From contig JBDRBE010000004.1 of NCBI GenBank assembly GCA_043823085.1, positions 197,510 through 261,509 on the forward strand: a stretch of DNA of 64,000 bases. Reading direction: 5' to 3'. This document shows, one piece after another, positions 3,555 to 24,072 of this stretch. This DNA comes from Candidatus Levyibacteriota bacterium. GTDB lineage: Bacteria > Patescibacteriota > Microgenomatia > Levybacterales > UBA12049. A program made the position numbers and the translations under genes. Positions within the stretch are counted from its first letter, which is position 1, and each line of letters starts with the position of its first letter. The notes under the pieces are model-generated. The model was given only the letters and a program-made list of their open reading frames with translations, did not search any database and was not told the origin of the DNA.

Positions 3555-5345
3555 TCAATACTCCTCAAGTGTTGATGTGTCGCCAATGGGAAGGCCAAGT
3601 TCTTTTGCTTTTAACACTCTTCTCATTATTTTTCCGCTTCTTGTTTTTGGAAGTTTATCGATAAATTCAATTTCGCGCGGATATGCGTGGCCTGCCAGAT
3701 GTTTTTTAACAAAAAGAGAAAGTTCTTCTTTTAATTTTTCACTTGGTTTAATATCTTTTTTTAAAACAACAAAAGCTTTGATAATTTCTCCCCGCATTGC
3801 ATCCGGTTTTCCAATTACCCCTGCTTCAACCACTCCCGGATAGTCTACGAGCGCCGATTCAACTTCAAACGGTCCAACTCTTTCACCTGCGGTTTTTATG
3901 ACGTCATCGGCCCTTCCAATAAACCAAAAATATCCGTCTTTATCTTTTAACGCCCTGTCGCCGGAAATATACCATTCGACTTGTCGCTTTGCTCCTCGCT
4001 CATGGCTGTAAGCCGTACCATTAATAAAGTATGATTTATATTTTGTTGGACGGCGCCAAATGCCTTTCATTAGTGACGGAAAGTTTGGGCGCAGAGCAAG
4101 ATTTCCTTCTCTGTTTATTTTAAGTTCATGGCCTTTATCATCAACAATGCCGGCAGTAATACCCGGAACCGGCTTTCCCATTGAACCTACTTTTATATCC
4201 AATACCGGGTAATTTGCAATACAAATTGCACCAAGTTCTGTCTGCCACCAATTGTCGTGAAAGGCAAGGCCAAAAGCTTTTTGCCCCCAAAAAATCGCTT
4301 CGGGATTAAGCGGTTCGCCAACGCTTGCCAAATGTCTTAGACTTGACAGATTATGTTTTTTGACTGGTTCAAGACCTGCGGCCATTAACATGCGGACTGC
4401 AGTCGGAGCAGTGTACCAAACAGTTACCTTATAATCCTCAATGATTTTGTACCAAGTATCCGGATCAAAACGCCCGTCATATACAACCGCTGACGCTCCG
4501 TTTGCCCATGATCCCAAAATTTCGTAAGCAATGCCTGTAACCCAGCCCGGATCTGCAGTGCACCAATAAACATCATCTTCTTTTAAATCCAAAACCCATT
4601 TTGCGGTAATATATTCTTGGACAATTGCCAAATGGCGGTGTAAAACACCTTTAGGTTTTCCCGTTGTTCCGGAGGTATAAAGCATAAAGGCCGAATCGTT
4701 TTTATCCATATTTCGGACATTAAAATCTTTACTTTGCTTTTGAAGTTCCTGATTAAAGAAGATAGCTTTTTTACTTTTTATTTGTTTTTGTGATTCACGT
4801 TCGACGATTATAATTATTTCCAAAGATGGGAGATCTTTCATTATTTTTTCAACACGAGGATAAAGTTCGCTATTTGTAATTAAAACTTTAGCCTGACTGT
4901 TTAAAAGCCTATCTAAAAGTGCTTTTTCCTGAAAAGCTGAGAAAAGCGTTCCGGCAATTGCGCCAATTTTTAAAATTCCCAAAAATGAAATATAAAGTTC
5001 CGGAATGCGGGGTAAAAAAATAAAAACTCTGTCTCCCTTATTGATCTTTTGCGATTTTAAAACATTGGCAAATTGGTTTGATTTTTCGGAAAAATCTTTA
5101 AAAGTATATTGTTCTTTTAATCCAGTTCCGCTCAAGAAATATAGGGCAATTTTATTTTTTCTAAAATTTAAGGCGTTTTGATCAATGGCAATATGCGCGG
5201 CATTTAATTTATGATTGGCAAAAATTGATAATTCTTTTTCTGCCGTCTTCCATGTAAACTTTTTATATTCTTTATTATAATCGGATAAATTAGCTTTTTC
5301 TTTTACGTTTTTATCTTTTCTAATGATTCTTTTGTCAGTTAACAT
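3555..5345 (-). CDS. acs: AMP-forming acyl-CoA synthetase, most likely acetyl-CoA synthetase
   Basis: YTSGTTGKPKGV AMP-binding motif and C-terminus ending ...PKTRSGKIMRRVL, typical of Acs. Confidence 0.8.
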   Translation of the reverse strand: MLTDKRIIRKDKNVKEKANLSDYNKEYKKFTWKTAEKELSIFANHKLNAAHIAIDQNALNFRKNKIALYFLSGTGLKEQYTFKDFSEKSNQFANVLKSQKINKGDRVFIFLPRIPELYISFLGILKIGAIAGTLFSAFQEKALLDRLLNSQAKVLITNSELYPRVEKIMKDLPSLEIIIIVERESQKQIKSKKAIFFNQELQKQSKDFNVRNMDKNDSAFMLYTSGTTGKPKGVLHRHLAIVQEYITAKWVLDLKEDDVYWCTADPGWVTGIAYEILGSWANGASAVVYDGRFDPDTWYKIIEDYKVTVWYTAPTAVRMLMAAGLEPVKKHNLSSLRHLASVGEPLNPEAIFWGQKAFGLAFHDNWWQTELGAICIANYPVLDIKVGSMGKPVPGITAGIVDDKGHELKINREGNLALRPNFPSLMKGIWRRPTKYKSYFINGTAYSHERGAKRQVEWYISGDRALKDKDGYFWFIGRADDVIKTAGERVGPFEVESALVDYPGVVEAGVIGKPDAMRGEIIKAFVVLKKDIKPSEKLKEELSLFVKKHLAGHAYPREIEFIDKLPKTRSGKIMRRVLKAKELGLPIGDTSTLEEY

Positions 5346-5346
5346 T

Positions 5347-5973
5347 TCAGACTAAATTTGGTTTGTAATTTTTTATTTCTTTAGAAATTATTTTGCCGGT
5401 TTCGTCAATTTGATAAATGTAAATTTCACCCGTGGCTATTTCAAGCTTTGAAATATTTTCATCTGAAATATTTTCTAGGTATTTAACCAATGCGCGCAGG
5501 CTGTTGCTGTGGGCGGATATCAATACGTTTTTTCCCAATAAAAGCTGGGGGAGAATTTGATTCTTATAATAAGGGACAGTTCGGGCATAAACGTCCTTAA
5601 GAGTTTCTCCTTTTGCGATAGGGTAGTCCCATGCCCTTCTGATTTTTAAAAAAATATCATCGCCGTATTGTTTTTTAATCTCCCATTTATTTTTGCCCGT
5701 AAATTCTCCATAGTCACGTTCGTTTAAAGCGGCATCTTTATATGCTGGAAAGTTACATTCCAATAAGCCTTTTTTTATTTCGTCCAGAGTTTCTATGGCA
5801 CGTTTCAAAGGCGAGGAAAAGGCCACGTCAAATTTAATATCTCTTATTAGTTCTCCCGCAACCCGCGCTTCTTCTTTGCCTTTTTCGCTCAAAGAGATAT
5901 CGGTAAAGCCCGTCCAAAGGCCTTTTGCATTCCAAACGGATTCTCCATGACGAACAAGTACCAAATAACCCAT
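5347..5973 (-). CDS. gpmA: 2,3-bisphosphoglycerate-dependent phosphoglycerate mutase
   Basis: LVLVRHGESVWN histidine-phosphatase motif. Confidence 0.85.
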   Translation of the reverse strand: MGYLVLVRHGESVWNAKGLWTGFTDISLSEKGKEEARVAGELIRDIKFDVAFSSPLKRAIETLDEIKKGLLECNFPAYKDAALNERDYGEFTGKNKWEIKKQYGDDIFLKIRRAWDYPIAKGETLKDVYARTVPYYKNQILPQLLLGKNVLISAHSNSLRALVKYLENISDENISKLEIATGEIYIYQIDETGKIISKEIKNYKPNLV

Positions 5974-5975
5974 AT

Positions 5976-7235
5976 TTATAATGTTTTTAATTGTTCTTCG
6001 ATTTGCAAAAGCCGATTATATTTTGCCACTCTTTCTCCTCTTGCCGGCGCACCAAATTTTACATAATCAGCGCCTACGGCAACAGCAAGATCCGCAATAA
6101 AATCATCATTTGTTTCGCCGGATCGGTGAGAGACAATTATTTTTAGTCCTGCCATTCTCGCCACCTCTATAACCGCCAATGTCTCAATTACAGTCCCGAT
6201 TTGATTTGGCTTAATAACAATTCCTGTAATGGCGTTTTTATCAATAGCCATTGCAAGTCTGTAAGGATTTGTAACGGTTAAATCGTCGCCGACAATAATT
6301 GTGTTTTGGGACAATCTTTGTGTTATCTTTGTCCATCCATTCCAATCATCCTCTCCCAGCGGATCTTCAAGATACAAAAAACCGAAATTTTTATTTAGTT
6401 CTTCGTAATAGGAAATTAATTCGTCGCTAGATAGCGGATCTGCATTATTTTTTATTTTGTATTTACCATCTTTATGGAAACTGTTTGCCGCCGCATCAAG
6501 ACCAAAAAAAACATCAAAACTATAATTAAAGCCGGCTTTTGTTATTGCATCTTTCATTATAGTGAGAGCATCGACAGACGATGCAACATTAGGACTAAAT
6601 CCCCCCTCGTCGCCTACAAGCGTTAAAAGATTTTTCTGTTTTATAATACTTTTTAAGTTTCTATACACTGATGTGCCAATTTCAAGTGACTGTGCATAAG
6701 TTTTTGAGCTGGCAGGAATAATCAAAAATTCTTGAAGAATAAGATTTCCGTCTGTGTGTTTTCCGCCATTTATCAGATTAAATGCCGGAGTTGGAATCTT
6801 CCAAACAGGCGGGGAATTTTTAATAAATTTTTTTAAATATGAGAAAAGAGGAAGAACGGAAGTTTTTGCCGCCGCTTTGGCAACTGCCATAGAAACAGAT
6901 AGAATTGCATTTGCACCAAGCTTTCCTTTATTTTGCGTACCGTCCAGTTCAATCATGAGTCTGTCGATTTCCTGTTGCTTATTAACTTCTAAACCAATAA
7001 GTTTTGGAGTAATAATATTTTGAACGCTATCAATTGCTTTCAATATTCCAAGACCGTTAAAACGATTTTCGTCGTGATCTCTTAAATCCAGTGCTTCGTA
7101 ACTTCCAACAGATGCCCCGCTTGGGCAATCGGCAATACCAATATTTCCATCATCTAAAACAACAGCGGTTTCAATAGTTGGATTTCCTCGGCAATCTAAA
7201 ATTTCACTTGATTTTATTTCTTTAATTTTGGCCAT
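5976..7235 (-). CDS. eno: Enolase
   Basis: MAKIKEIKSSEILDCRGNPTIE...SHRSGETED-like motifs. ATG at 7235; the track used an upstream TTG. Confidence 0.95.
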   Translation of the reverse strand: MAKIKEIKSSEILDCRGNPTIETAVVLDDGNIGIADCPSGASVGSYEALDLRDHDENRFNGLGILKAIDSVQNIITPKLIGLEVNKQQEIDRLMIELDGTQNKGKLGANAILSVSMAVAKAAAKTSVLPLFSYLKKFIKNSPPVWKIPTPAFNLINGGKHTDGNLILQEFLIIPASSKTYAQSLEIGTSVYRNLKSIIKQKNLLTLVGDEGGFSPNVASSVDALTIMKDAITKAGFNYSFDVFFGLDAAANSFHKDGKYKIKNNADPLSSDELISYYEELNKNFGFLYLEDPLGEDDWNGWTKITQRLSQNTIIVGDDLTVTNPYRLAMAIDKNAITGIVIKPNQIGTVIETLAVIEVARMAGLKIIVSHRSGETNDDFIADLAVAVGADYVKFGAPARGERVAKYNRLLQIEEQLKTL

Positions 7236-13211: not shown

Positions 13212-13628
13212 TTAAGAATTAGAAATTTTTTTATACTCTTTAAACAACTGATTAGTCAGTATTGATATTCTCCGACTTCTTGTCTGGTGGGGGACAAGCG
13301 CGCCTGAAAAATTCTTTGGAATATGCAATAGCTCATGGATTAGAACTTTCTTTTTATCATCCTCGCTTAATTTATCAAAATGTCTGGATAGAACTTCGAT
13401 TACATAAGCCGGTCTGACATCCAAAGCGCGTTGAAATATTTTTGGAAAAGACCAAATGCGTGCGTAAGATCTTGATTTTGAACCATATGTACGGTAGCAA
13501 AATATTCTGCCTGGATTAATGTGAGCTAGATTGAGAATTTGAATAATTTCACTAATCTCTTTTTTAACTTCCATCGCCTCTTCCCAATTTAATTTTGAGT
13601 TTTGAGTTTTGAGTTTTGAGTTTTTCAT
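13212..13628 (-). CDS. Small HExxH zinc-metallopeptidase-like protein
   Basis: HELLH motif. The start at 13628 forms an ATGA overlap with the upstream stop and would put the heptamer repeat in the N-terminus. The alternative start MEVKK at 13574 is preceded by a GGGAAG Shine-Dalgarno sequence. Confidence 0.45.
   Translation of the reverse strand: MKNSKLKTQNSKLNWEEAMEVKKEISEIIQILNLAHINPGRIFCYRTYGSKSRSYARIWSFPKIFQRALDVRPAYVIEVLSRHFDKLSEDDKKKVLIHELLHIPKNFSGALVPHQTRSRRISILTNQLFKEYKKISNS
13593..13625. repeat. Heptanucleotide simple-sequence repeat (TTTTGAG)x4 plus TTTTT at the ykuK-like/HExxH gene junction
   Basis: Read directly at 13593-13625. Confidence 0.9.
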
Positions 13629-14125
13629 GTGTGCTTATCGGCTACGTATGATGCGCCGTAAGACTCTGGTTTTGTTTTTGCGACAAACCCGTTTCCCGTC
13701 ACCATTCCAACAACTTCTTTTATCATTTCTCTTGTGTCGCCGTGTTCCCCAACGTCGACATGAATTTCCAGATTGTAATTGGGGCTTTTACCATTTAGAG
13801 CCTTTTTAAGGATTGGAACAAAGGTCTTTGCAAAATCAAGCGAAATCATTGTTTCGGCGTAAATTTTCTGACGCAGAGTATGAATATCGCGTACTTTTCT
13901 CCTTTGCCAAAAATATTTTCCGCCAAACCCTTTTCGATGCACAACAACTGCCGTTACAAGATTTACGACTTTTTTGCCGTTTTCTCCATCGATTTTTTCC
14001 TGTGAATCCGTTCCAATTACAAGATTGTAATCGAGTTTTGGATCTTCCTCCAAGAAATATTTAATATAATTAATAACTTCCAAAAGGTCGAGCGTTCCGT
14101 GGGTTGTGCTTTGAAATAATTCCAT
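13625..14125 (-). CDS. YkuK/DUF458-family RNase H-like protein
   Basis: LVIGTDSQ motif typical of DUF458. Confidence 0.5.
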   Translation of the reverse strand: MELFQSTTHGTLDLLEVINYIKYFLEEDPKLDYNLVIGTDSQEKIDGENGKKVVNLVTAVVVHRKGFGGKYFWQRRKVRDIHTLRQKIYAETMISLDFAKTFVPILKKALNGKSPNYNLEIHVDVGEHGDTREMIKEVVGMVTGNGFVAKTKPESYGASYVADKHT

Positions 14126-15760: not shown

Positions 15761-15790
15761 TTGACAATAGACCAAAGAGTCGGGTATTAT
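15761..15790 (+). promoter_or_regulatory. Promoter of the lexA-paralog operon: -35 TTGACA at 15761-15766, 18-nt spacer, -10 TATTAT at 15785-15790; the ATG is 7 nt downstream, so the mRNA is leaderless
   Basis: Read directly. GAAAATTC lies just upstream of the -35. Confidence 0.5.
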
Positions 15791-15796
15791 TGTTTT

Positions 15797-16435
15797 ATGC
15801 AAGCTAATCCCACACAACGACAAAAAGAGCTGCTTTCTATTATTTACCAATATATCCAAAATACCGGCTATCCTCCATCTTTTGAAGAAATGAAAAAACA
15901 ACTTGATGTTTCTTCAAATCAATCTGTCTTAGATCTTTTGATCAAACTGGAAGAACGGAGTTTGCTTAAAAGAAATGAATCTTCAGCTAGAAGTATCCTT
16001 ATACTGCCTCTTGGTTATGAAATTCTCGACAAACCTCCTCTTGCCCCATTCCTTGGCGCTACAAGCGCCGGTGTTCCGCTTGAAGCCATAGAAATCTCTG
16101 GAGACTGGCAGCCTCTTTCTTCAGACGTTGCCAAACTGCAAGACAATGTTTTTCTGCTCAAAATTTCTGGTGATTCCATGATTAATGCCGGTATTGATAA
16201 CGGCGATATGGTTTTAGTTAAAAGCGAAAAGGAATTTGTCTCGGGCGATATTGTATTGGCGCAAATTGGAGACGAAGCTACAATTAAACGATTTATGTCG
16301 GACGATAAACCGCCTTATGTTTATTTAAAACCAGAAAATCCAAAATATAGAATTATCCCTTTTACTGACGAAATGAGACTAACGGGAAAAGTTGTTTCTG
16401 TCTTCAGAGAAGGTTCTTGGAGGTCAGTTAATTAA
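15797..16435 (+). CDS. Second LexA-family repressor (LexA DNA-binding domain plus S24 peptidase)
   Basis: YPPSFEEMKKQLDVSS...LLIKLEERSLLKR N-terminus, GDSM Ser motif and ATIKRF Lys motif. The stop lies 3 nt before the next gene. Confidence 0.8.
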   Translation: MQANPTQRQKELLSIIYQYIQNTGYPPSFEEMKKQLDVSSNQSVLDLLIKLEERSLLKRNESSARSILILPLGYEILDKPPLAPFLGATSAGVPLEAIEISGDWQPLSSDVAKLQDNVFLLKISGDSMINAGIDNGDMVLVKSEKEFVSGDIVLAQIGDEATIKRFMSDDKPPYVYLKPENPKYRIIPFTDEMRLTGKVVSVFREGSWRSVN

Positions 16436-16438
16436 AAT

Positions 16439-18394
16439 ATGCCGACACAAAAGTTAAATAAAACAAAAGAAGTTATTGGAAAAATCTTTAAAGATTCTCA
16501 AATTCCTTATGGCTTGAAGGAATTTGGAGAGATTAGTCTAGAAGAAACTCTTACAATTACCGAAGAGGAGAAAGGGAGATTTTATATTAAAGACTTAAAA
16601 TCAGGTAATTTAAGATTTGTTTTTGATGAGGAAAAACAGTCGGGGAAACCGGAAGAGATTGTCAGGCAGCTTTGGTTGTATAAACTTCATACGCAATATC
16701 AATACCCTTTGGATAGAATTGACATAGAAAAAAGTATCCATTTTGGCCGTGAAATCCACGCTAAAGCCGCGGATATTGTTATTTATAAAAAGGATAAAAT
16801 TACTCCTTACATCATTGTTGAAGTTAAAAGTCCTACAGAAGAAAAAGGGATTGATCAGCTTAAGAGCTATTTAAGTGCTGAGGGAGCGGAAATTGGCCTT
16901 TGGTCAAATGGATTAAAGCGAGTTATTCTCTATCGCCCGTATCCTAGAGAATACAACGATACTCTTCCGGATTTGCCCCTTGCAAATACGACCATTGACG
17001 ATCTGCTAGAGGCTAAGAAGACTCTTTTTGAATACACCACCACTAAAATTAATTTAAAAGAAACAATTGAGACGATGGAAGAGTTAGTGCTTGCTAATGC
17101 TGGCGTGGATGTTTTTAATGAAGTTTTTAAGTTAATTTATGCCAAACTCTATGATGAAGGAGAAGCTAAATTTAGAAAAGATAATGAAGTTTATTTCAGA
17201 AAATATAAAGATCCGCAAAAAACTTATAATGTAATTAATGATCTTTTCAAAAAAGCAATCCACAAGTGGCCTGGTACTTTCTTTGAACAGGAAAACATCA
17301 GACTTTCTCCAGAACATCTTAATATTGTTGTTGGTGAACTAGAAAAAGCACGCCTTTTTGGCTCAGACCTTTCTATTATTGATGAAGCATTTGAATATTT
17401 AATCCCGGAAGTGGCCAAAGGTAAAAAAGGTCAGTACTTTACCCCTCGTCATGTTATTTCCATGGCGGTTAAAATGCTTAATCCCAAAAAAGACGAATAT
17501 GTGATTGACCCGGCGGCAGGTTCGGGTGGTTTTCTTATCAATGCCATGTATTTTGTTCGCGAGCAACACTTAAATGGTTCTGATGAGGCCATGAGAGAAT
17601 ACGCCAAAGATTATGTTTGGGGAATTGATTTTGCTGAAGAAATTTCCAAAGTTTCACGGGCCTTAATGTTGATTGCCGGCGATGGTCGTTCCCATATGTT
17701 TAGACTTAACTCTTTAGATCCGAGGGAGTGGCAAGGCGAGGATTCGGATCTTCTTGATGCTCGCTCCAAACTGAAAAACAGGCTTCTGGATTTAAGTAAT
17801 TCTTCTGATAGTTCGGAAAACCAACAAACTTTTCATTATTTCAACTTCGATGTTTTGTTAACGAATCCTCCGTTTGCCGGCGAAATTAAAGATAGCGGAA
17901 TTTTAAGGCAGTATTTTTTGGGAAGAAGAAAAGGGAAATTGGCTAACAAAATTGAACGACATATTTTGTTTATTGAAAGGGTTTTGGATATGATTCGTCC
18001 GGGTGGGCGTTTGGCAATAGTTTTACCTCAAGGAATTTTGAATAATACCAATATGGAATATATAAGAAACTGGCTTTTTGAAAAAGCCAGAATTTTAGCA
18101 GTGGTTGGACTTCATGGGAATACTTTTAAGCCTCATGCTGGAACTAAAACTTCGGTTTTGTTTTTACAAAAATGGGAAGAAAAAGAACAGCCTCTAAAAG
18201 ATTACCCAATTTTTATGGCAGTTTCCAAAAAAGGAGGGAAAGATAATTCCGGGGAATATATTTACAAAAAAGATGCAAATGGAAATTATGTTCATGATCA
18301 AAAGGGCAGAAAAGTTTTAGACCATGATTTAGACCAAATAGCAGATTCATTTATAAAATTTGCAAAGGAGCAAAATTTCAACTTTTGGAGATGA
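16439..18394 (+). CDS. Fusion of an HsdR_N-like PD-(D/E)xK nuclease domain and a gamma-class N6-adenine DNA methyltransferase (HsdM-like / BcgI-A-like restriction-modification subunit)
   Basis: N-terminus ADIVIYKKDKITPYIIVEVK carries the D...EVK nuclease motif. The methyltransferase has DPAAGSGGFL (motif I) and NPPF (motif IV). Confidence 0.8.
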   Translation: MPTQKLNKTKEVIGKIFKDSQIPYGLKEFGEISLEETLTITEEEKGRFYIKDLKSGNLRFVFDEEKQSGKPEEIVRQLWLYKLHTQYQYPLDRIDIEKSIHFGREIHAKAADIVIYKKDKITPYIIVEVKSPTEEKGIDQLKSYLSAEGAEIGLWSNGLKRVILYRPYPREYNDTLPDLPLANTTIDDLLEAKKTLFEYTTTKINLKETIETMEELVLANAGVDVFNEVFKLIYAKLYDEGEAKFRKDNEVYFRKYKDPQKTYNVINDLFKKAIHKWPGTFFEQENIRLSPEHLNIVVGELEKARLFGSDLSIIDEAFEYLIPEVAKGKKGQYFTPRHVISMAVKMLNPKKDEYVIDPAAGSGGFLINAMYFVREQHLNGSDEAMREYAKDYVWGIDFAEEISKVSRALMLIAGDGRSHMFRLNSLDPREWQGEDSDLLDARSKLKNRLLDLSNSSDSSENQQTFHYFNFDVLLTNPPFAGEIKDSGILRQYFLGRRKGKLANKIERHILFIERVLDMIRPGGRLAIVLPQGILNNTNMEYIRNWLFEKARILAVVGLHGNTFKPHAGTKTSVLFLQKWEEKEQPLKDYPIFMAVSKKGGKDNSGEYIYKKDANGNYVHDQKGRKVLDHDLDQIADSFIKFAKEQNFNFWR

Positions 18395-18395
18395 A

Positions 18396-18932
18396 ATGAA
18401 AAATAAAAGAAAAATAGTATACGCTTTTATAGACAGTCAGAATTTAAACTTGGGGACGAGTAAAGATATCTACAAGAGCAGAGGTAAGTATAAAAAATTA
18501 ATATACAAAGGTTGGAAACTGGATTTTCGCAAATTTAGGAAATATTTATTTGATAAATTTAGAGTTAGCAAAGCCTTTTTATTTATTGGCTATATTAAAC
18601 AAAATGAAAAGATGTATAAACGCTTAAAGTCTTACGGGTATGAATTAATTTTTAAGCCCACTGTAAAAGATGATTATGGAAAGCCAAAAGGAAATGTTGA
18701 TGCGGAACTTGTGCTTCATGCGGCGGCTATAGAATTTTCAAACTATGCTAAAGCCATAGTTGTTTCAAATGACGGTGATTTTCGTTGTTTGCATGAGTAT
18801 TTAGAAAAAAGGAGTAAGCTACTATACATAGTTATCCCTAATAAACATAGTGAGTCTAGTTTATTAAAAGAGTTTCAGAGATACAAAATATTTCTTTATC
18901 GTGAGAAGGAGAACTTAGAATTTAAGCAATAA
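18396..18932 (+). CDS. NYN-domain (LabA-like, PIN-like) putative ribonuclease
   Basis: IVYAFIDSQNL, GNVDAELVLHA and VVSNDGDF acidic motifs. GGAG Shine-Dalgarno sequence 10 nt upstream; begins 1 nt after the methyltransferase stop. Confidence 0.7.
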   Translation: MKNKRKIVYAFIDSQNLNLGTSKDIYKSRGKYKKLIYKGWKLDFRKFRKYLFDKFRVSKAFLFIGYIKQNEKMYKRLKSYGYELIFKPTVKDDYGKPKGNVDAELVLHAAAIEFSNYAKAIVVSNDGDFRCLHEYLEKRSKLLYIVIPNKHSESSLLKEFQRYKIFLYREKENLEFKQ

Positions 18933-18949
18933 AAATGGGAGGCGTCGCA

Positions 18950-18968
18950 AATAGACACGTAGTCTATT
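18950..18968. repeat. Perfect 7-bp inverted repeat AATAGAC-N5-GTCTATT
   Basis: Read directly, 18 nt after the NYN gene stop. Confidence 0.8.
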
Positions 18969-19048
18969 GGTCGTATTCTCCCTAATGATTAGTTAGATTA
19001 TATTAGCTTTTATGATGATAGTCAAGATAGCAAAAGATATCAAAAAAG

Positions 19049-19077
19049 GATGGTTCGGCAAACTCACCACAAGAGGA
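19049..19077 (+). repeat. 29-nt direct repeat, copy 1 (GATGGTTCGGCAAACTCACCACAAGAGGA), ending in the Shine-Dalgarno sequence of the orphan gene
   Basis: Matches copy 2 at 26 of 29 positions; all mismatches are A/G transitions. Confidence 0.85.
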
Positions 19078-19103
19078 TTTAGTTTTTGGAGGTAATATTA
19101 CAT

Positions 19104-19649
19104 ATGAGACCTAAGCTTGAAATAGATTTTGAACATTTTGCTGTAATGCTATTTGGAGATAGATACTATCAATATTGCAACTGGAACACGGAAAGTAATT
19201 ATAAAAAACTTTTGAAAGAAATAGCTCATCAATTAGAGATAGTAATTAACTCACAATTTACACCATCTGATGGTTTACAAAAACAAATGATAGAATTTTC
19301 ACTAGAAAAACTTCAGCGATCACCTAAAAAAAGCAATTACGAAGCATATTACATCAAAGAGTTAGTAACAATTATTTTTTGGATATTAGGTGACTTTCCC
19401 AACAACTGGCAAAGAAAAAACCTTAGAGGTAAAAAGATAGATAATTTCCATTATTCACGAAGTTTACACTATTCTCAAACTCTTAATCAAAAGATAAATA
19501 CTATTCTTGAAGCTCATAGGCTATCTCCTTTTTCCGAAAGGATATCTTGGCATGATCTAATAGTAAAAATAGGGCAATCTGGCGGTAGGGATAAATTTAT
19601 AGATTTTTATAAAAAAACTTACCCCGATTTATATTTGAAACTATTTTAA
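19104..19649 (+). CDS. Orphan hypothetical protein (182 aa) embedded in the restriction-modification-like operon
   Basis: GGAGG Shine-Dalgarno sequence 13 nt upstream of the ATG at 19104; no recognisable domain. Confidence 0.55.
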   Translation: MRPKLEIDFEHFAVMLFGDRYYQYCNWNTESNYKKLLKEIAHQLEIVINSQFTPSDGLQKQMIEFSLEKLQRSPKKSNYEAYYIKELVTIIFWILGDFPNNWQRKNLRGKKIDNFHYSRSLHYSQTLNQKINTILEAHRLSPFSERISWHDLIVKIGQSGGRDKFIDFYKKTYPDLYLKLF

Positions 19650-19686
19650 TATGATTACTTATTCAATAATCCAAAAATCTCAACTT

Positions 19687-19715
19687 GATGGTTCGACAAG
19701 CTCGCCACAAGAGGA
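19687..19715 (+). repeat. 29-nt direct repeat, copy 2 (GATGGTTCGACAAGCTCGCCACAAGAGGA), ending in the hsdS Shine-Dalgarno sequence
   Basis: See copy 1. Confidence 0.85.
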
Positions 19716-19727
19716 GCACTTTATTTT

Positions 19728-21098
19728 ATGATTTCATATTCAATCATTAACAAAAGTCAGTTAGAGGGAGCCTCGCGGCTGGATGCGGAATATTATCAGC
19801 CGGAATATTTAACCCTTGCTCAAAAACTAAGAGAGCTTAGTCTCCCCAGAATAAGCAAACTAGGTTTAGCTGTTGATGCGAGCGCTTTTTATCCATCAAT
19901 AGCAGAATACTATACTAGCGATGGGATCCCTTTTGTCAGGGTTGCAGATGTTGTAAATTTTCAATTGATTGAGGATGATTTATTGTTCTTGCCCAAAAAA
20001 ATTGCTGAGCAATATAAAACATTACGAAAAGGTAAGCCGGGAGATATTATTATCACAAAAGGTGGTACTGTAGGAAACGCAGCTCTCCTCCCTAAAAAAT
20101 ATCCAGAATACGCATTGAGCAGAGATATTATTTTTATTAGAACCTCAAAACTTCCAGAAGAGCTAGCAATAACAATTCTTCTATTTTTAAATTCAAAGTT
20201 TGGAATTTTTCAGTTGCTAAGAGGCGCAAGTCAGCAAATTCAACAACATTTAACTTTCCCATTTATTCGAGACTTAAATGTTCCCAAAATTGCCATTTAT
20301 GAAGCAGTAGAACTTTATCGAAAGGGGCTTGATGAATACGAAAATTCGAAATCTTTATACGCTAAAGCCGAGAATTTGCTTCTGGAGGAGTTGGGATTAA
20401 AAGATTTTCAAGTTGAAGATGATTTGAGTTTTGTTGTAAATCTTTCAGATGTAAAATCTGCAAACCGAGTTGATGCGGAACACTTTCAGCCGAAATATGA
20501 TAAATTATTGGAAAAAATTAAGCAAAATAAATGTCAAGTTTTAACAAGTATAATAGAAAACGTCAACGCAAAATTTGATCCTATTAAAACTCCAGATTCG
20601 GAATTTAAATATGTTGAATTAGCAAACATTAACTCATCTATAGGAGTTATTGATGGTTATACTGAAGTTTTAGGCAAAGAAGCCCCAAGCAGAGCAAAAA
20701 GATTATTAAAAAAAGACGATGTAATTGTTTCAAGCATTGAGGGATCTCTAGAAAAAGTTGCTCTAGCGGATGAGGAGCAAGATGGTTATATTGCTTCAAC
20801 CGGGTTTTTCCAATTTAGATCAAAAGAGTTATTACCGGAGGTAATTTTAATTTTTGCAAAAAGCATGGTTTTACAGTGGCAGTTTAAAAAACATTGTGCA
20901 GGTACGATATTAACAGCAGTTCCCGGCGAAGCTTTACAAAAAATGTTTATTCCAATAATTTCAAAACCCACCCAACAAAAAATTGCGGAATTGGTGAGGA
21001 AATCACATGAGGCAAGGAAAAAATCAAAAGAGCTTTTAGAAGAAGCGAAAAGAAAAGTTGAGACTTCGATAGAAACTCAGTCTAAAAGAAATGATTGA
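19728..21098 (+). CDS. hsdS: Type I restriction-modification specificity subunit with two target-recognition domains
   Basis: Duplicated RLDAEYYQP and RVDAEHFQP motifs, a central conserved coiled region, and C-terminal ELLEEAKRKVE. Confidence 0.85.
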   Translation: MISYSIINKSQLEGASRLDAEYYQPEYLTLAQKLRELSLPRISKLGLAVDASAFYPSIAEYYTSDGIPFVRVADVVNFQLIEDDLLFLPKKIAEQYKTLRKGKPGDIIITKGGTVGNAALLPKKYPEYALSRDIIFIRTSKLPEELAITILLFLNSKFGIFQLLRGASQQIQQHLTFPFIRDLNVPKIAIYEAVELYRKGLDEYENSKSLYAKAENLLLEELGLKDFQVEDDLSFVVNLSDVKSANRVDAEHFQPKYDKLLEKIKQNKCQVLTSIIENVNAKFDPIKTPDSEFKYVELANINSSIGVIDGYTEVLGKEAPSRAKRLLKKDDVIVSSIEGSLEKVALADEEQDGYIASTGFFQFRSKELLPEVILIFAKSMVLQWQFKKHCAGTILTAVPGEALQKMFIPIISKPTQQKIAELVRKSHEARKKSKELLEEAKRKVETSIETQSKRND

Positions 21099-21717: not shown

Positions 21718-21789
21718 GGGCCGGTAGCTCAGCGGTAGAGCAGGAGCCTTTTAAGCTCTTGGTCACAGGTTCGAATCCTGTCCGGCTCA
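21718..21789 (+). tRNA. tRNA-Lys (anticodon TTT)
   Basis: Cloverleaf folded by hand: acceptor GGGCCGG/CCGGCTC, anticodon loop CTTTTAA, T-loop GGTTCGAATCC. No CCA encoded. Confidence 0.88.
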
Positions 21790-21870
21790 CTCTTCGACTC
21801 GCACAATGCAATTGTGCTCGCTCAGAGTAAACTCGAGTCAAAGAACCCTGAGCTTGTCGAAGGGCTAACA

Positions 21871-22125
21871 ATGTCTTGGTTCGTTTATATAGCTAGAGCA
21901 AAAACTAACAGATTTTATACGGGGATCACTACATGTCCTAACAAAAGGATCACAAAGCACAATTCAGGCAAGGGTTCAAGGTTTGCTATAGAACAAGGTC
22001 CATTTGAACTGATTTATAGCTCCAAAGCATTTCCAGATAAATCAGAAGCAAGAAAGAGGGAAATTCAAATTAAAGGTTGGTCAAGAGAAAAGAAATTAAA
22101 ACTAATAAGCGGGGCGTGGAAATAG
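21871..22125 (+). CDS. GIY-YIG nuclease superfamily protein (UPF0213-like)
   Basis: WFVYIARAKTNRFYTGITT...KHNSGKG...REIQIKGWSREKK; GAAGGG Shine-Dalgarno sequence upstream. Confidence 0.75.
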   Translation: MSWFVYIARAKTNRFYTGITTCPNKRITKHNSGKGSRFAIEQGPFELIYSSKAFPDKSEARKREIQIKGWSREKKLKLISGAWK

Positions 22126-23523: not shown

Positions 23524-24072
23524 GTGGTGAAGAAAAAAGTTTTAGTTCAGTTTGATGGCAGCAATTTCTACAAAAAAGTTAAACAGATTCTACCTCAAGT
23601 TCATTTAACTAATTTTGATTACAAAGGATTAGCAAAATCCATCACAAAAGCCACACCGGATCAAATAATTTACTATGTCGGCGAAATTAGAAAATATCCT
23701 GGCAATAAAAAGTCAGAAACTCTATATGCCAATCAACAGTAGCTATTCTTAAACTTAAGAAAGCAGGGTTTAGAAATAAAACTTGGATATCTTTTGATGT
23801 CCAATGGAAAATTTAGTGAAAAAGGCGTTGATGTTCAGATTGCTGTCGATATTGTACGCGGATCGATAAAGAATGAATTCAGTAAATTTTATCTGATTTC
23901 CTCTGATACAGATTTATTACCAGCTATTCAAACCGCAAAGGAAGAAGGGAAAGAGGTAATTTATGTTGGTTTCGAAAATTTCATCAGTCGAGCTCTACAA
24001 AAGAACTGTTCTTCTTACTTGATTTTAAAGAAAAAACAAATTCTAAAATTTGCTAAAATTAAAAGAAGTTGA
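23524..24072 (+). pseudogene. NYN-domain gene interrupted by a single in-frame TAG at 23740-23742
   Basis: Track ORFs 23524..23742 and 23794..24072 are in the same frame. Reading through gives one NYN domain: ...FDGSNFY...YANQQ*LFLNLRKQGLEIKLGYLL...KGVDVQIAVD...LISSDTDLLP. Confidence 0.65.

Follow-up and report, generated by a model that had tools for sequence, protein, structure and literature searches.

Between 15.7 and 21.1 kb of the window, by which we mean the whole stretch of 64,000 nucleotides analysed here from a metagenome-assembled Candidatus Levyibacteriota genome (GenBank assembly GCA_043823085.1, contig JBDRBE010000004.1, positions 197,510 to 261,509), lie five co-oriented genes: a lexA-like gene, a gene (M) for a fused nuclease-methyltransferase, a gene for an NYN domain ribonuclease (RNase), a gene for an 'orphan' protein that we term X, and an hsdS-like gene (S). 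Our comparisons establish with high confidence that this region is a composite of two unrelated parts, namely a restriction-modification (RM) cassette and, inserted within it, a unit that consists of the NYN gene and a predicted small RNA gene convergent with it. The reading that we consider best overall, with a probability of roughly 0.55, is that the unit encodes a movable NYN RNase that would be controlled by a cis-antisense RNA, in the manner of a type I toxin-antitoxin system, and that sometimes lands in RM operons. For the antisense, toxin-like mechanism taken by itself, the predicted features leave the chances slightly short of even. A more ambitious proposal, that the NYN RNase and its structured RNA of ~60 nt make up a nuclease module under RNA control that has not been described before, is either toxin-antitoxin-like or a ribonucleoprotein, is widespread in the candidate phyla radiation (CPR) and Chloroflexi, is mobile, recurs in RM operons of several types and possibly provides a second-line, abortive-infection-type layer, is put forward as a tentative and, in this complete form, rather doubtful one.

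The dedicated small RNA and the evidence for movement of the two-gene unit are the new elements here. Bacterial NYN (LabA-like) proteins are abundant, yet were essentially unstudied as nucleases at the time of the 2017 classification of the PIN-like superfamily (PMC5499597), and the finding gives a very conserved NYN subfamily a concrete partner, in the form of a small RNA gene that has its own promoter and is absent from Rfam. If this RNA does serve as an antitoxin or regulator, the pair would constitute a type I-like system whose toxin is an NYN nuclease, found in the little-studied CPR lineage. Versions of the cassette that lack NYN exist as well and provide a natural comparison, with and without the nuclease, that bears on why nucleases gather in RM operons. 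No account of an NYN-plus-small-RNA module, or of NYN in Patescibacteria, was found in the searchable literature.

The NYN gene and a predicted, convergent small RNA gene

The unit is made up of the following features:

18396..18932, plus strand: NYN (LabA-like) RNase gene, the inserted gene (Pfam NYN match and homologue alignment)
18928..18990, minus strand: predicted small RNA of ~60 nt with a conserved AUCA 5' end, a hairpin (18937-18982) and a U-tract (nhmmer, alignment and covariation; ends predicted)
18997..19025, minus strand: small RNA promoter, TTGACT, 17 nt, TATAAT (promoter scan 11/12)

The NYN gene extends from an ATG at 18396 to a TAA at 18930-18932 and encodes a product of 178 residues, which matches the Pfam NYN family PF01936 with an E-value of 4.7e-13 (50.3 bits, compared with a cut-off of 24.2) and has as its closest solved relative the LabA-like NYN protein 2qip (PDB, E 2.5e-6). 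On this basis we assign it to the NYN domain nucleases (PF01936, LabA-like/COG1432). An initial annotation of this DNA had drawn attention to the acidic motifs IDSQN, NVDAE and SNDGD, and this observation holds: D13 (IDSQN), D43, D102 and E104 (NVDAE), and D126 and D128 (SNDGD) are each retained in at least 95% of 57 homologues, which supports an intact active site. The same annotation proposed that NYN is translationally coupled to M, and indeed the NYN ATG is located one base past the TGA stop codon of M (18392-18394), with a GGAG sequence at 18387-18390, 5 nt ahead of the ATG. Searches with Pfam, PADLOC and NCBIfam detected only the NYN domain within the 178 residues and no ABC-ATPase or HEPN domain; PADLOC, NCBIfam and PHROGs returned nothing useful for either NYN or X, and the PADLOC models do not recognise this NYN.

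The 171 nt that separate NYN from X are not mere spacer, since they carry a predicted small RNA gene on the opposite strand. Its -35 box (TTGACT, 19025-19020) and -10 box (TATAAT, 19002-18997) are separated by a non-conserved spacer of 17 nt, and the -10 box is followed after 6-7 nt by the conserved sequence AUCA(C/U)N. The hairpin then reads AGGGAGAA(U)ACGA(C/A)C, one strand of a 7-bp stem, a UACGU loop, the other strand of the stem and GCNACGCCUCCC (18982-18937 in the window), and the complement of the U-tract that ends the RNA overlaps the NYN stop codon. Alignment places this element directly 3' of the NYN stop codon in every locus, with nhmmer detecting it in ~50 of them. Over 60 copies the promoter score averaged 9.9 out of 12, compared with 7.5 for shuffled sequences; in 46 of these 60 the distance from the end of the -10 box to AUCA is 6-7 nt.

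The stems of the RNA show strong covariation. Pairing is possible in 97.3% of the stem cells (78.7% in shuffles), 98 cells carry double changes (31.6 in shuffles), and the covariation score is 0.511, compared with 0.182 for shuffled alignments and no more than 0.13 for slid controls. G-U pairs outnumber A-C pairs by 14-15 to 1-6, an excess that argues for selection acting on the minus-strand RNA. The copy in the window has a minimum free energy of -17.5 kcal/mol (z -3.5), and a covariance model found exactly one copy of the RNA in the window (90 bits); the cassettes that lack NYN yielded none. In the Chloroflexi loci and in two distant lineages (L073 and L074; L numbers are our handles for the loci compared) the inner hairpin has been replaced, and the promoter, the 5' end (AUCACGA), the outer stem and the U-tract are kept. 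The RNA belongs to no Rfam family, the window having given no match at the gathering threshold and the region 18850-19120 none at E-values up to 10, and a scan of viral contigs for the small RNA pattern likewise returned no matches.

Since a U-tract comes after the hairpin on the minus strand, at the end of a gene, it could be argued that the hairpin is a mere terminator, or a site acting at the DNA level, rather than part of a functional RNA. We regard this as very unlikely. In most copies the conserved 5' end is preceded, at a distance of 6-7 nt, by a promoter close to the consensus, so the transcript would be the hairpin alone; moreover, the loops are conserved beyond what a terminator needs, and the G-U bias points to RNA-level selection on one strand. 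That the NYN and small RNA genes travel together as a unit is demonstrated by the comparison of loci, and we predict that the RNA is a dedicated partner of NYN that could function as its antitoxin or regulator.

Three other interpretations of the element were discarded. A small open reading frame on the plus strand across the hairpin (MGGVANRH...) is ruled out by a stop at codon 7 in L012 together with the covariation of the stem, and one on the minus strand, within the RNA, by the lack of a conserved start codon in the alignment. Pairing of the 3' arm of the hairpin with the IDSQN codons of NYN (ATAGAC) showed no co-variation across 45 loci, and the match in the window is a coincidence. As a separate observation, CCUCCC in the outer stem (its 3' strand) and AUCAC in the conserved 5' tail of the RNA (18937-18941 and 18978-18982, minus strand) together resemble the 3' end of 16S rRNA, which is GAUCACCUCCUU; the RNA might conceivably sequester Shine-Dalgarno sequences in trans. 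Solo copies of the RNA, more diverged and without an adjacent NYN gene, occur in L024 (2113-2227) and L046 (5997-6111), both of which contigs also hold a complete NYN-RNA unit ~1.5-5 kb from the solo copy.

Insertion of the NYN-RNA unit and the independence of X

Two features downstream of the small RNA promoter are relevant here:

19030..19095, plus strand: decayed second copy of the 3' end of M (GCAAAAGA...TTTAGTTTTTGGAGGTAA, also given as GCAAAAGA...ATTTAGTTTTTGGAGGTAA; encodes ...FSFWR*), identified against the M/X junctions of L001 and L005 and the genuine end of M
19104..19649, plus strand: X, an all-helical protein of 181 residues, resident member of the cassette (synteny; no Pfam match)

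Close homologues of X are rare, with only three found among 5.8 billion clustered proteins (51-59% identity). Two of the three (L001-L004 and L005-L006) sit in cassettes with the order lexA-like, M, X, S, in which X lies directly ahead of hsdS, the gaps from the M stop to the X start and from the X stop to the S start are only 1-7 nt, and the NYN gene is absent from an otherwise collinear arrangement. The third is on a short contig (L007) that also lacks NYN, and it is followed by a Schlafen/AlbA_2 gene. In L001 and L005 the M gene ends in ...TTTAGTTTTTGGAAGTAA or ...TTTAACTTTTGGAGGTAA directly ahead of X. The working M gene in the window ends in ...TTTCAACTTTTGGAGATGA at 18394 (the real M end was compared at 18362-18394), and the decayed second copy of this end starts just past the small RNA promoter, finishes directly ahead of X and is broken by a mini-insert of 23-25 nt at 19052-19076. 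The block from 18395 to ~19029, which comprises NYN, the RNA gene and its promoter (~630 nt), is thus bracketed by a duplicated M end exactly at the M/X junction, and because a decayed second M 3' end flanks the block we interpret it as an insertion. Host-derived direct repeats also flank the unit elsewhere, of 24 nt in L060 and 15 nt in L027, and the variety of its genomic contexts, the tandem NYN paralogues and the solo RNA copies likewise speak for insertion. Taken together, the sequence comparisons demonstrate that the NYN-RNA unit was inserted into this cassette.

These results bear on the initial annotation, which had regarded NYN and the orphan protein as a pair placed between the M and S genes, possibly forming a latent RNase toxin with its antitoxin or regulator that is held under the RM complex, as in PrrC, and triggered by phage anti-restriction. 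Some of the underlying description stands, in that an NYN protein of 178 residues does lie between M and S and is followed by the orphan gene, although the orphan product has 181 rather than 182 residues and 'M' is a nuclease-methyltransferase fusion. Likewise, the GGAGG sequence that was taken as a strong Shine-Dalgarno sequence for the orphan is present but is a relic, derived from the last codons of M (TGG AGG TAA) within the decayed M-end copy. The two genes are adjacent and co-oriented in an RM operon and the NYN active site is intact, which favours the latent toxin model. Against this model, a small RNA gene and the M-end relic lie between the two genes, X occurs without NYN in L001-L007 and in a further operon (L083, described below), and X homologues are absent from all 65 other NYN loci, so the co-occurrence across genomes that characterises a type II toxin-antitoxin pair is absent. 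NYN and X are thereby shown to be independent of each other.

The resemblance to PrrC is equally limited. PrrC is a protein of ~400 residues with an ABC-ATPase and a HEPN-type nuclease, masked by an HsdR-containing type Ic complex. The window shares with PrrC and RloC an RNase gene inside an RM operon, and a tRNA-Lys gene is nearby; this gene, the tRNA-Lys(ttt) noted in the initial annotation, was confirmed at 21718-21790, 620 nt past hsdS, and its proximity is coincidental. The nuclease in the window differs in consisting of a single NYN domain of 178 residues, in having an RNA partner and in being found mostly outside RM loci; it has neither the N-terminal ABC-type NTPase nor the C-terminal HEPN-like domain of PrrC and RloC, the operon is not a type I system containing HsdR, the 64-kb window holds no homologue of HsdR or Res, and M is itself a nuclease-methyltransferase. 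We therefore judge the model of an NYN toxin and an orphan antitoxin under RM control to be barely credible. What survives of it is the notion of a regulated RNase in an RM operon, since NYN has an intact active site, is an added gene and is embedded in RM operons elsewhere; its partner, though, is the predicted RNA and not the orphan protein.

X itself is best viewed, from the comparison of cassettes, as an original accessory gene of the RM cassette, and it probably works with the S subunit. The lack of a detectable domain reported initially was confirmed, there being no family match and, for a structure model with a predicted local distance difference test (pLDDT) score of 91.5, no convincing fold match. 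A profile search identified a wider X family with 193 cluster representatives at E <= 1e-3, which are proteins of ~190 residues; a word-indexed profile search gave only 9 matches, and a metagenome scan with an alignment of 10 sequences found no relatives. One member of this family, 31% identical to X, is flanked by hsdM and a half-size hsdS in a type I operon of the classical kind, with HsdR present (L083), and another is in a non-RM context (L081). The L083 operon holds further embedded genes, one for a protein of 387 residues without a family match (4027-5190) ahead of X and a DUF3800 gene (6412-7131) after the half-size hsdS. Fold matches obtained with a first, shallow model of X (pLDDT 65) were meaningless and were set aside.

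Distribution of the NYN family and the proposed function of the unit

More than 7,900 relatives of NYN were found in the database, and the best 120 of them, 70-83% identical, come from several CPR lineages. We fetched 65 NYN loci from species-representative genomes, identified the families of two genes on each side of NYN by Pfam scans, and counted RM neighbours within three genes of NYN in 58 species-level loci. The neighbours are mostly housekeeping genes: ychF, encoding the YchF GTPase, follows NYN in 14 loci, and glycosyltransferases, along with tRNA and metabolic enzymes, are frequent. In 50 of the 58 loci no gene of RM type is present within a distance of three genes, RM or defence genes occurring in only ~8, and NYN is therefore routinely found outside the RM setting to which the initial annotation had tied it. 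In the RM cases NYN stands between genes of one and the same system, in arrangements that include hsdM-NYN-NYN-hsdS-Abi_alpha-hsdR (L008/L016) and hsdM-NYN...hsdR (L048) in type I systems, mod-NYN-res in a type III system (L057; mod is also upstream in L061) and PLD/SNF2 helicase-NYN-MmeI-like methyltransferase-KAP NTPase (L013/L019). In L029 NYN adjoins GmrSD. Of the 38 loci with a gene on the same strand no more than 400 nt upstream, 13 have an NYN start that overlaps or abuts the stop codon of that gene. Many other loci show a TGnTATAAT-like box 6-9 nt ahead of the NYN ATG, which suggests that the NYN message in these loci is leaderless.

Additional NYN genes were observed in several places. 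Tandem paralogues lie beside the main NYN gene in L016 (2991-3509), L018 (2535-3077) and L025 (6310-6849), of which the paralogue in L018 has its own RNA gene and those in L016 and L025 have none. The window carries a second NYN gene of another subfamily (23524-24072, plus strand), which matches the PADLOC HEC-09 model (5.8e-10) and a LabA-like NYN model; it is broken by a single in-frame TAG at 23740-23742 and is either a pseudogene or the product of a sequencing error.

The mechanism that we favour would operate as follows. Transcripts of the cassette that start at the lexA-like promoter would continue across NYN into X and S, as is to be expected given that the plus strand lacks a T-run behind the hairpin, and because the transcripts traverse the small RNA gene they would contain a perfect complement of the RNA. 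Produced in excess from its own strong promoter, the small RNA would pair with any transcript that reads through the 3' end of NYN, and either this pairing (by cleavage of the duplex) or transcriptional interference would lower the output of NYN and perhaps of the downstream genes. The NYN-RNA unit would accordingly be a movable, self-limiting, toxin-like RNase module that lands in dispensable operons such as those for RM, and NYN would not be masked by the RM complex in the way that PrrC is.

This arrangement agrees, by prediction and in ~60 loci, with one hallmark of type I toxin-antitoxin systems, a cis-encoded antisense RNA that overlaps the toxin message. It departs from another, the small hydrophobic peptide toxin, NYN being a soluble nuclease domain of 178 residues, although SymE is a known exception to this rule. 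In Bacillus, the txpA/RatA and bsrG/SR4 pairs consist of a toxin gene and a strongly promoted antisense RNA that converge so that their 3' ends overlap; the toxins concerned are small membrane peptides, whereas the candidate toxin of the window is a metal-dependent nuclease of 178 residues and the overlap is confined to the terminator region. In the SymE/SymR pair of E. coli, a protein toxin that promotes the cleavage of RNA is repressed by LexA and controlled by a cis-encoded antisense RNA, and the locus is tied to RM and other mobile islands (PMC1891008). Comparably, the operon from which NYN is transcribed begins with a lexA-like repressor gene, and a predicted cis-encoded RNA lies opposite the candidate toxin; the two differ in that SymE has an AbrB fold and SymR covers the 5' end and ribosome-binding site of symE, whereas here the fold is NYN/PIN-like, the RNA lies at the 3' end and the toxicity is a prediction.

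Several observations weigh against our preferred reading. The small RNA overlaps the NYN message at the 3' end alone and leaves its ribosome-binding site uncovered, and the sequences of its internal and apical loops (ACGA..., UACGUG) are conserved, which would suggest recognition by a protein over simple antisense pairing. The RNA might then bind the NYN protein, as a type III-like antitoxin, a substrate decoy or a cofactor. In favour of such an activity, the internal and apical loops are invariant or nearly so in an RNA whose stems covary, solo copies far from any NYN gene imply action in trans, and the overlap with the NYN message is limited to its extreme 3' end. The strictly convergent, abutting layout in ~60 loci is, by contrast, typical of cis-antisense systems, and the Chloroflexi replace the inner hairpin sequence yet keep this layout. 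Known type III antitoxin RNAs, moreover, consist of tandem repeats that precede the toxin gene, share its strand and are processed by the toxin, whereas the RNA described here is a single hairpin located downstream on the opposite strand. We think it rather improbable that a protein-binding RNA accounts for the unit.

The conservation of NYN is also unusually high for a toxin: in 49 of 55 pairs of genomes it exceeds that of the neighbouring universal GTPase YchF (mean identity 75% compared with 61%), and this, along with the adjacency to ychF in 14 genomes, fits a housekeeping RNase at least as well as a toxin. NYN could accordingly be a core RNA-processing enzyme of CPR bacteria and Chloroflexi, engaged for example in rRNA or tRNA maturation, with the RNA tuning its dosage and RM operons representing incidental relocations. 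Consistent with this, NYN identity remains at 66-88% even where that of YchF drops to 45-55%, synteny of NYN and ychF extends over 14 species with neighbours that are mostly housekeeping genes, and earlier work on gene neighbourhoods ties bacterial NYN genes to tRNA and rRNA processing (PMC5499597). A housekeeping enzyme is harder to reconcile with the clear insertion of the unit into at least one cassette that exists without NYN, with its location between the genes of type I M/S, type III mod/res and helicase/methyltransferase operons, and with the tandem paralogues, the solo RNA copies and the direct repeats of host sequence that flank some loci. On balance we consider a housekeeping role unlikely, but a serious contender. 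A further difficulty for a movable module is that no transposase, integrase or recombinase accompanies the NYN-RNA unit.

Finally, RM genes are enriched in the immediate vicinity of NYN, at 6 of 114 adjacent genes compared with 7 of 553 others (Fisher p 0.013), a rough figure in that the queries were drawn from the same loci. Because of this enrichment a functional link between NYN and RM retains some probability. The unit could represent a second-line abortive-infection layer that has been selected within RM systems, following a PrrC-like logic but with the RNA as its antitoxin. Besides the enrichment, this explanation is favoured by the range of systems in which the unit is embedded, comprising type I (L008/L016, L048), type III (L057, L061), PLD-helicase/MmeI-like (L013, L019) and the location beside GmrSD (L029), and by precedent, since both the coupling of PIN-like nucleases to type I RM and the embedding of genes within defence systems have been described (PMC5499597; bioRxiv 10.1101/2024.01.29.577857). 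Matelska et al. (2017) described PIN-like genes that are co-transcribed with HsdM/HsdS, at times without an antitoxin and without an obvious restriction subunit (PMC5499597). On the other hand, 50 of the 58 loci have no nearby RM gene, the PADLOC models miss this NYN, and HEC-09, the one embedded NYN that has been tested and a member of another subfamily, gave no protection (bioRxiv 10.1101/2024.01.29.577857). Neither of these papers describes an associated small RNA, and the NYN subfamily of the inserted gene matches neither the HEC-09 nor the PADLOC NYN models. A function selected for defence strikes us as quite unlikely, and the RNase under cis-antisense control remains our preferred reading.

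The host RM cassette and neighbouring elements

The cassette that received the NYN-RNA unit contains, in addition to X, the following features:

15761..15790, plus strand: cassette promoter, TTGACA, 18 nt, TATTAT, with a conserved GTCGGGTA box as candidate operator (promoter scan 11/12)
15797..16435, plus strand: lexA-like repressor gene, LexA DNA-binding domain and S24 peptidase (Pfam LexA_DNA_bind 1e-12, Peptidase_S24 4.1e-27)
16439..18394, plus strand: M, fused nuclease-methyltransferase of 651 residues (Pfam HSDR_N_2 9e-22, N6_Mtase 5.4e-36)
19651..19719, plus strand: remnant of an older hsdS 5' end, broken at 19692-19714 by the other copy of the mini-insert (match to the start of hsdS in L001)
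19728..21098, plus strand: specificity subunit gene, hsdS-like (Pfam Methylase_S 4.5e-9, PADLOC Specificity_I 1.4e-49)

Our best reading is that these genes form a self-contained RM system, with a promoter, a lexA-like repressor, a type IIB-like nuclease-methyltransferase, X and a specificity subunit. The GTCGGGTA box is located between the -35 and -10 elements in three cassettes (window 15761-15797; L001 ~1040-1110; L005 ~25-62), and in each of them the lexA-like start codon lies 7 nt past the -10 box, which implies a leaderless mRNA. A second lexA-like gene in the window (~1313-1915) is only 29% identical to the cassette copy, so the latter is a dedicated paralogue. M has an N-terminal PD-(D/E)XK nuclease domain with a D...EVK motif that is conserved in L001, and its best match among solved structures is the type IIB subunit RM.BsaXI (E 7.8e-31); PADLOC files the gene as a type I methyltransferase. 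As judged from these matches, the cassette has the nuclease-N6-adenine methyltransferase subunit and the separate specificity subunit expected of a type IIB system. It resembles the type IIB enzymes BsaXI and BcgI in pairing a subunit that combines a nuclease with a gamma-type N6-adenine methyltransferase and a separate S-like subunit, and differs from them in its two extra conserved genes, lexA-like and X. It does not belong to the MADS systems, the NCBIfam scores being 312 for MAD2 (cut-off 720) and 126 bits for MAD5 (cut-off 400), with no other mad genes adjacent. The cassette is thus a compact RM variant, probably repressor-controlled, with an uncharacterised conserved third protein.

Identity to the L001 and L005 cassettes is 62% for the lexA-like protein, 64-70% for M and 51-54% for X, but only 36-50% for S. 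The S allele therefore seems to have been exchanged relative to M, which suggests its replacement by recombination. The hsdS remnant, broken by the same insert at the same site, recurs in L087 and L094. The first ~14 codons of hsdS are duplicated in tandem in the window (19651-19727 compared with 19728 onward), with the upstream copy resembling the hsdS start of L001 and carrying the mini-insert. The gene downstream of the L001 cassette (5725-5985, minus strand) is 53% identical to the window gene upstream of the cassette (13625-14125, minus strand); the cassette is placed differently relative to the same neighbour and hence fits a movable cassette.

The mini-insert, GGTTCGRCAAGCTCACCACAAGAGG, has a length of 23-25 nt and is present twice in the window (19052-19076 and 19690-19714), on both occasions in a decayed duplicate gene end. 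It was also found on 11 further metagenome contigs, which differ greatly in GC content (L087, L091, L092, L094, L095 and others), where it occurs at an identical spot in the hsdS 5' ends of L087 and L094 and elsewhere in frame as ~8 extra codons (GS[TA]SSPQE) inside open reading frames that were read by eye as alaS-, murD- and rseP-like. It looks like a dispersed mini-insertion. The two copies were considered as direct repeats of 25 nt that flank X and mark the boundaries of a cassette, an idea ruled out by the presence of the same sequence in unrelated genes on the 11 contigs. Further downstream in the window, a small GIY-YIG nuclease gene (21790-22125) starts right after the tRNA-Lys(ttt) gene, and ahead of it is a ...CCTGAGCTTGTCGAAGGGC... 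motif (PELVEG), the reverse complement of which contains TTCGACAAGCTC, the core of the mini-insert.

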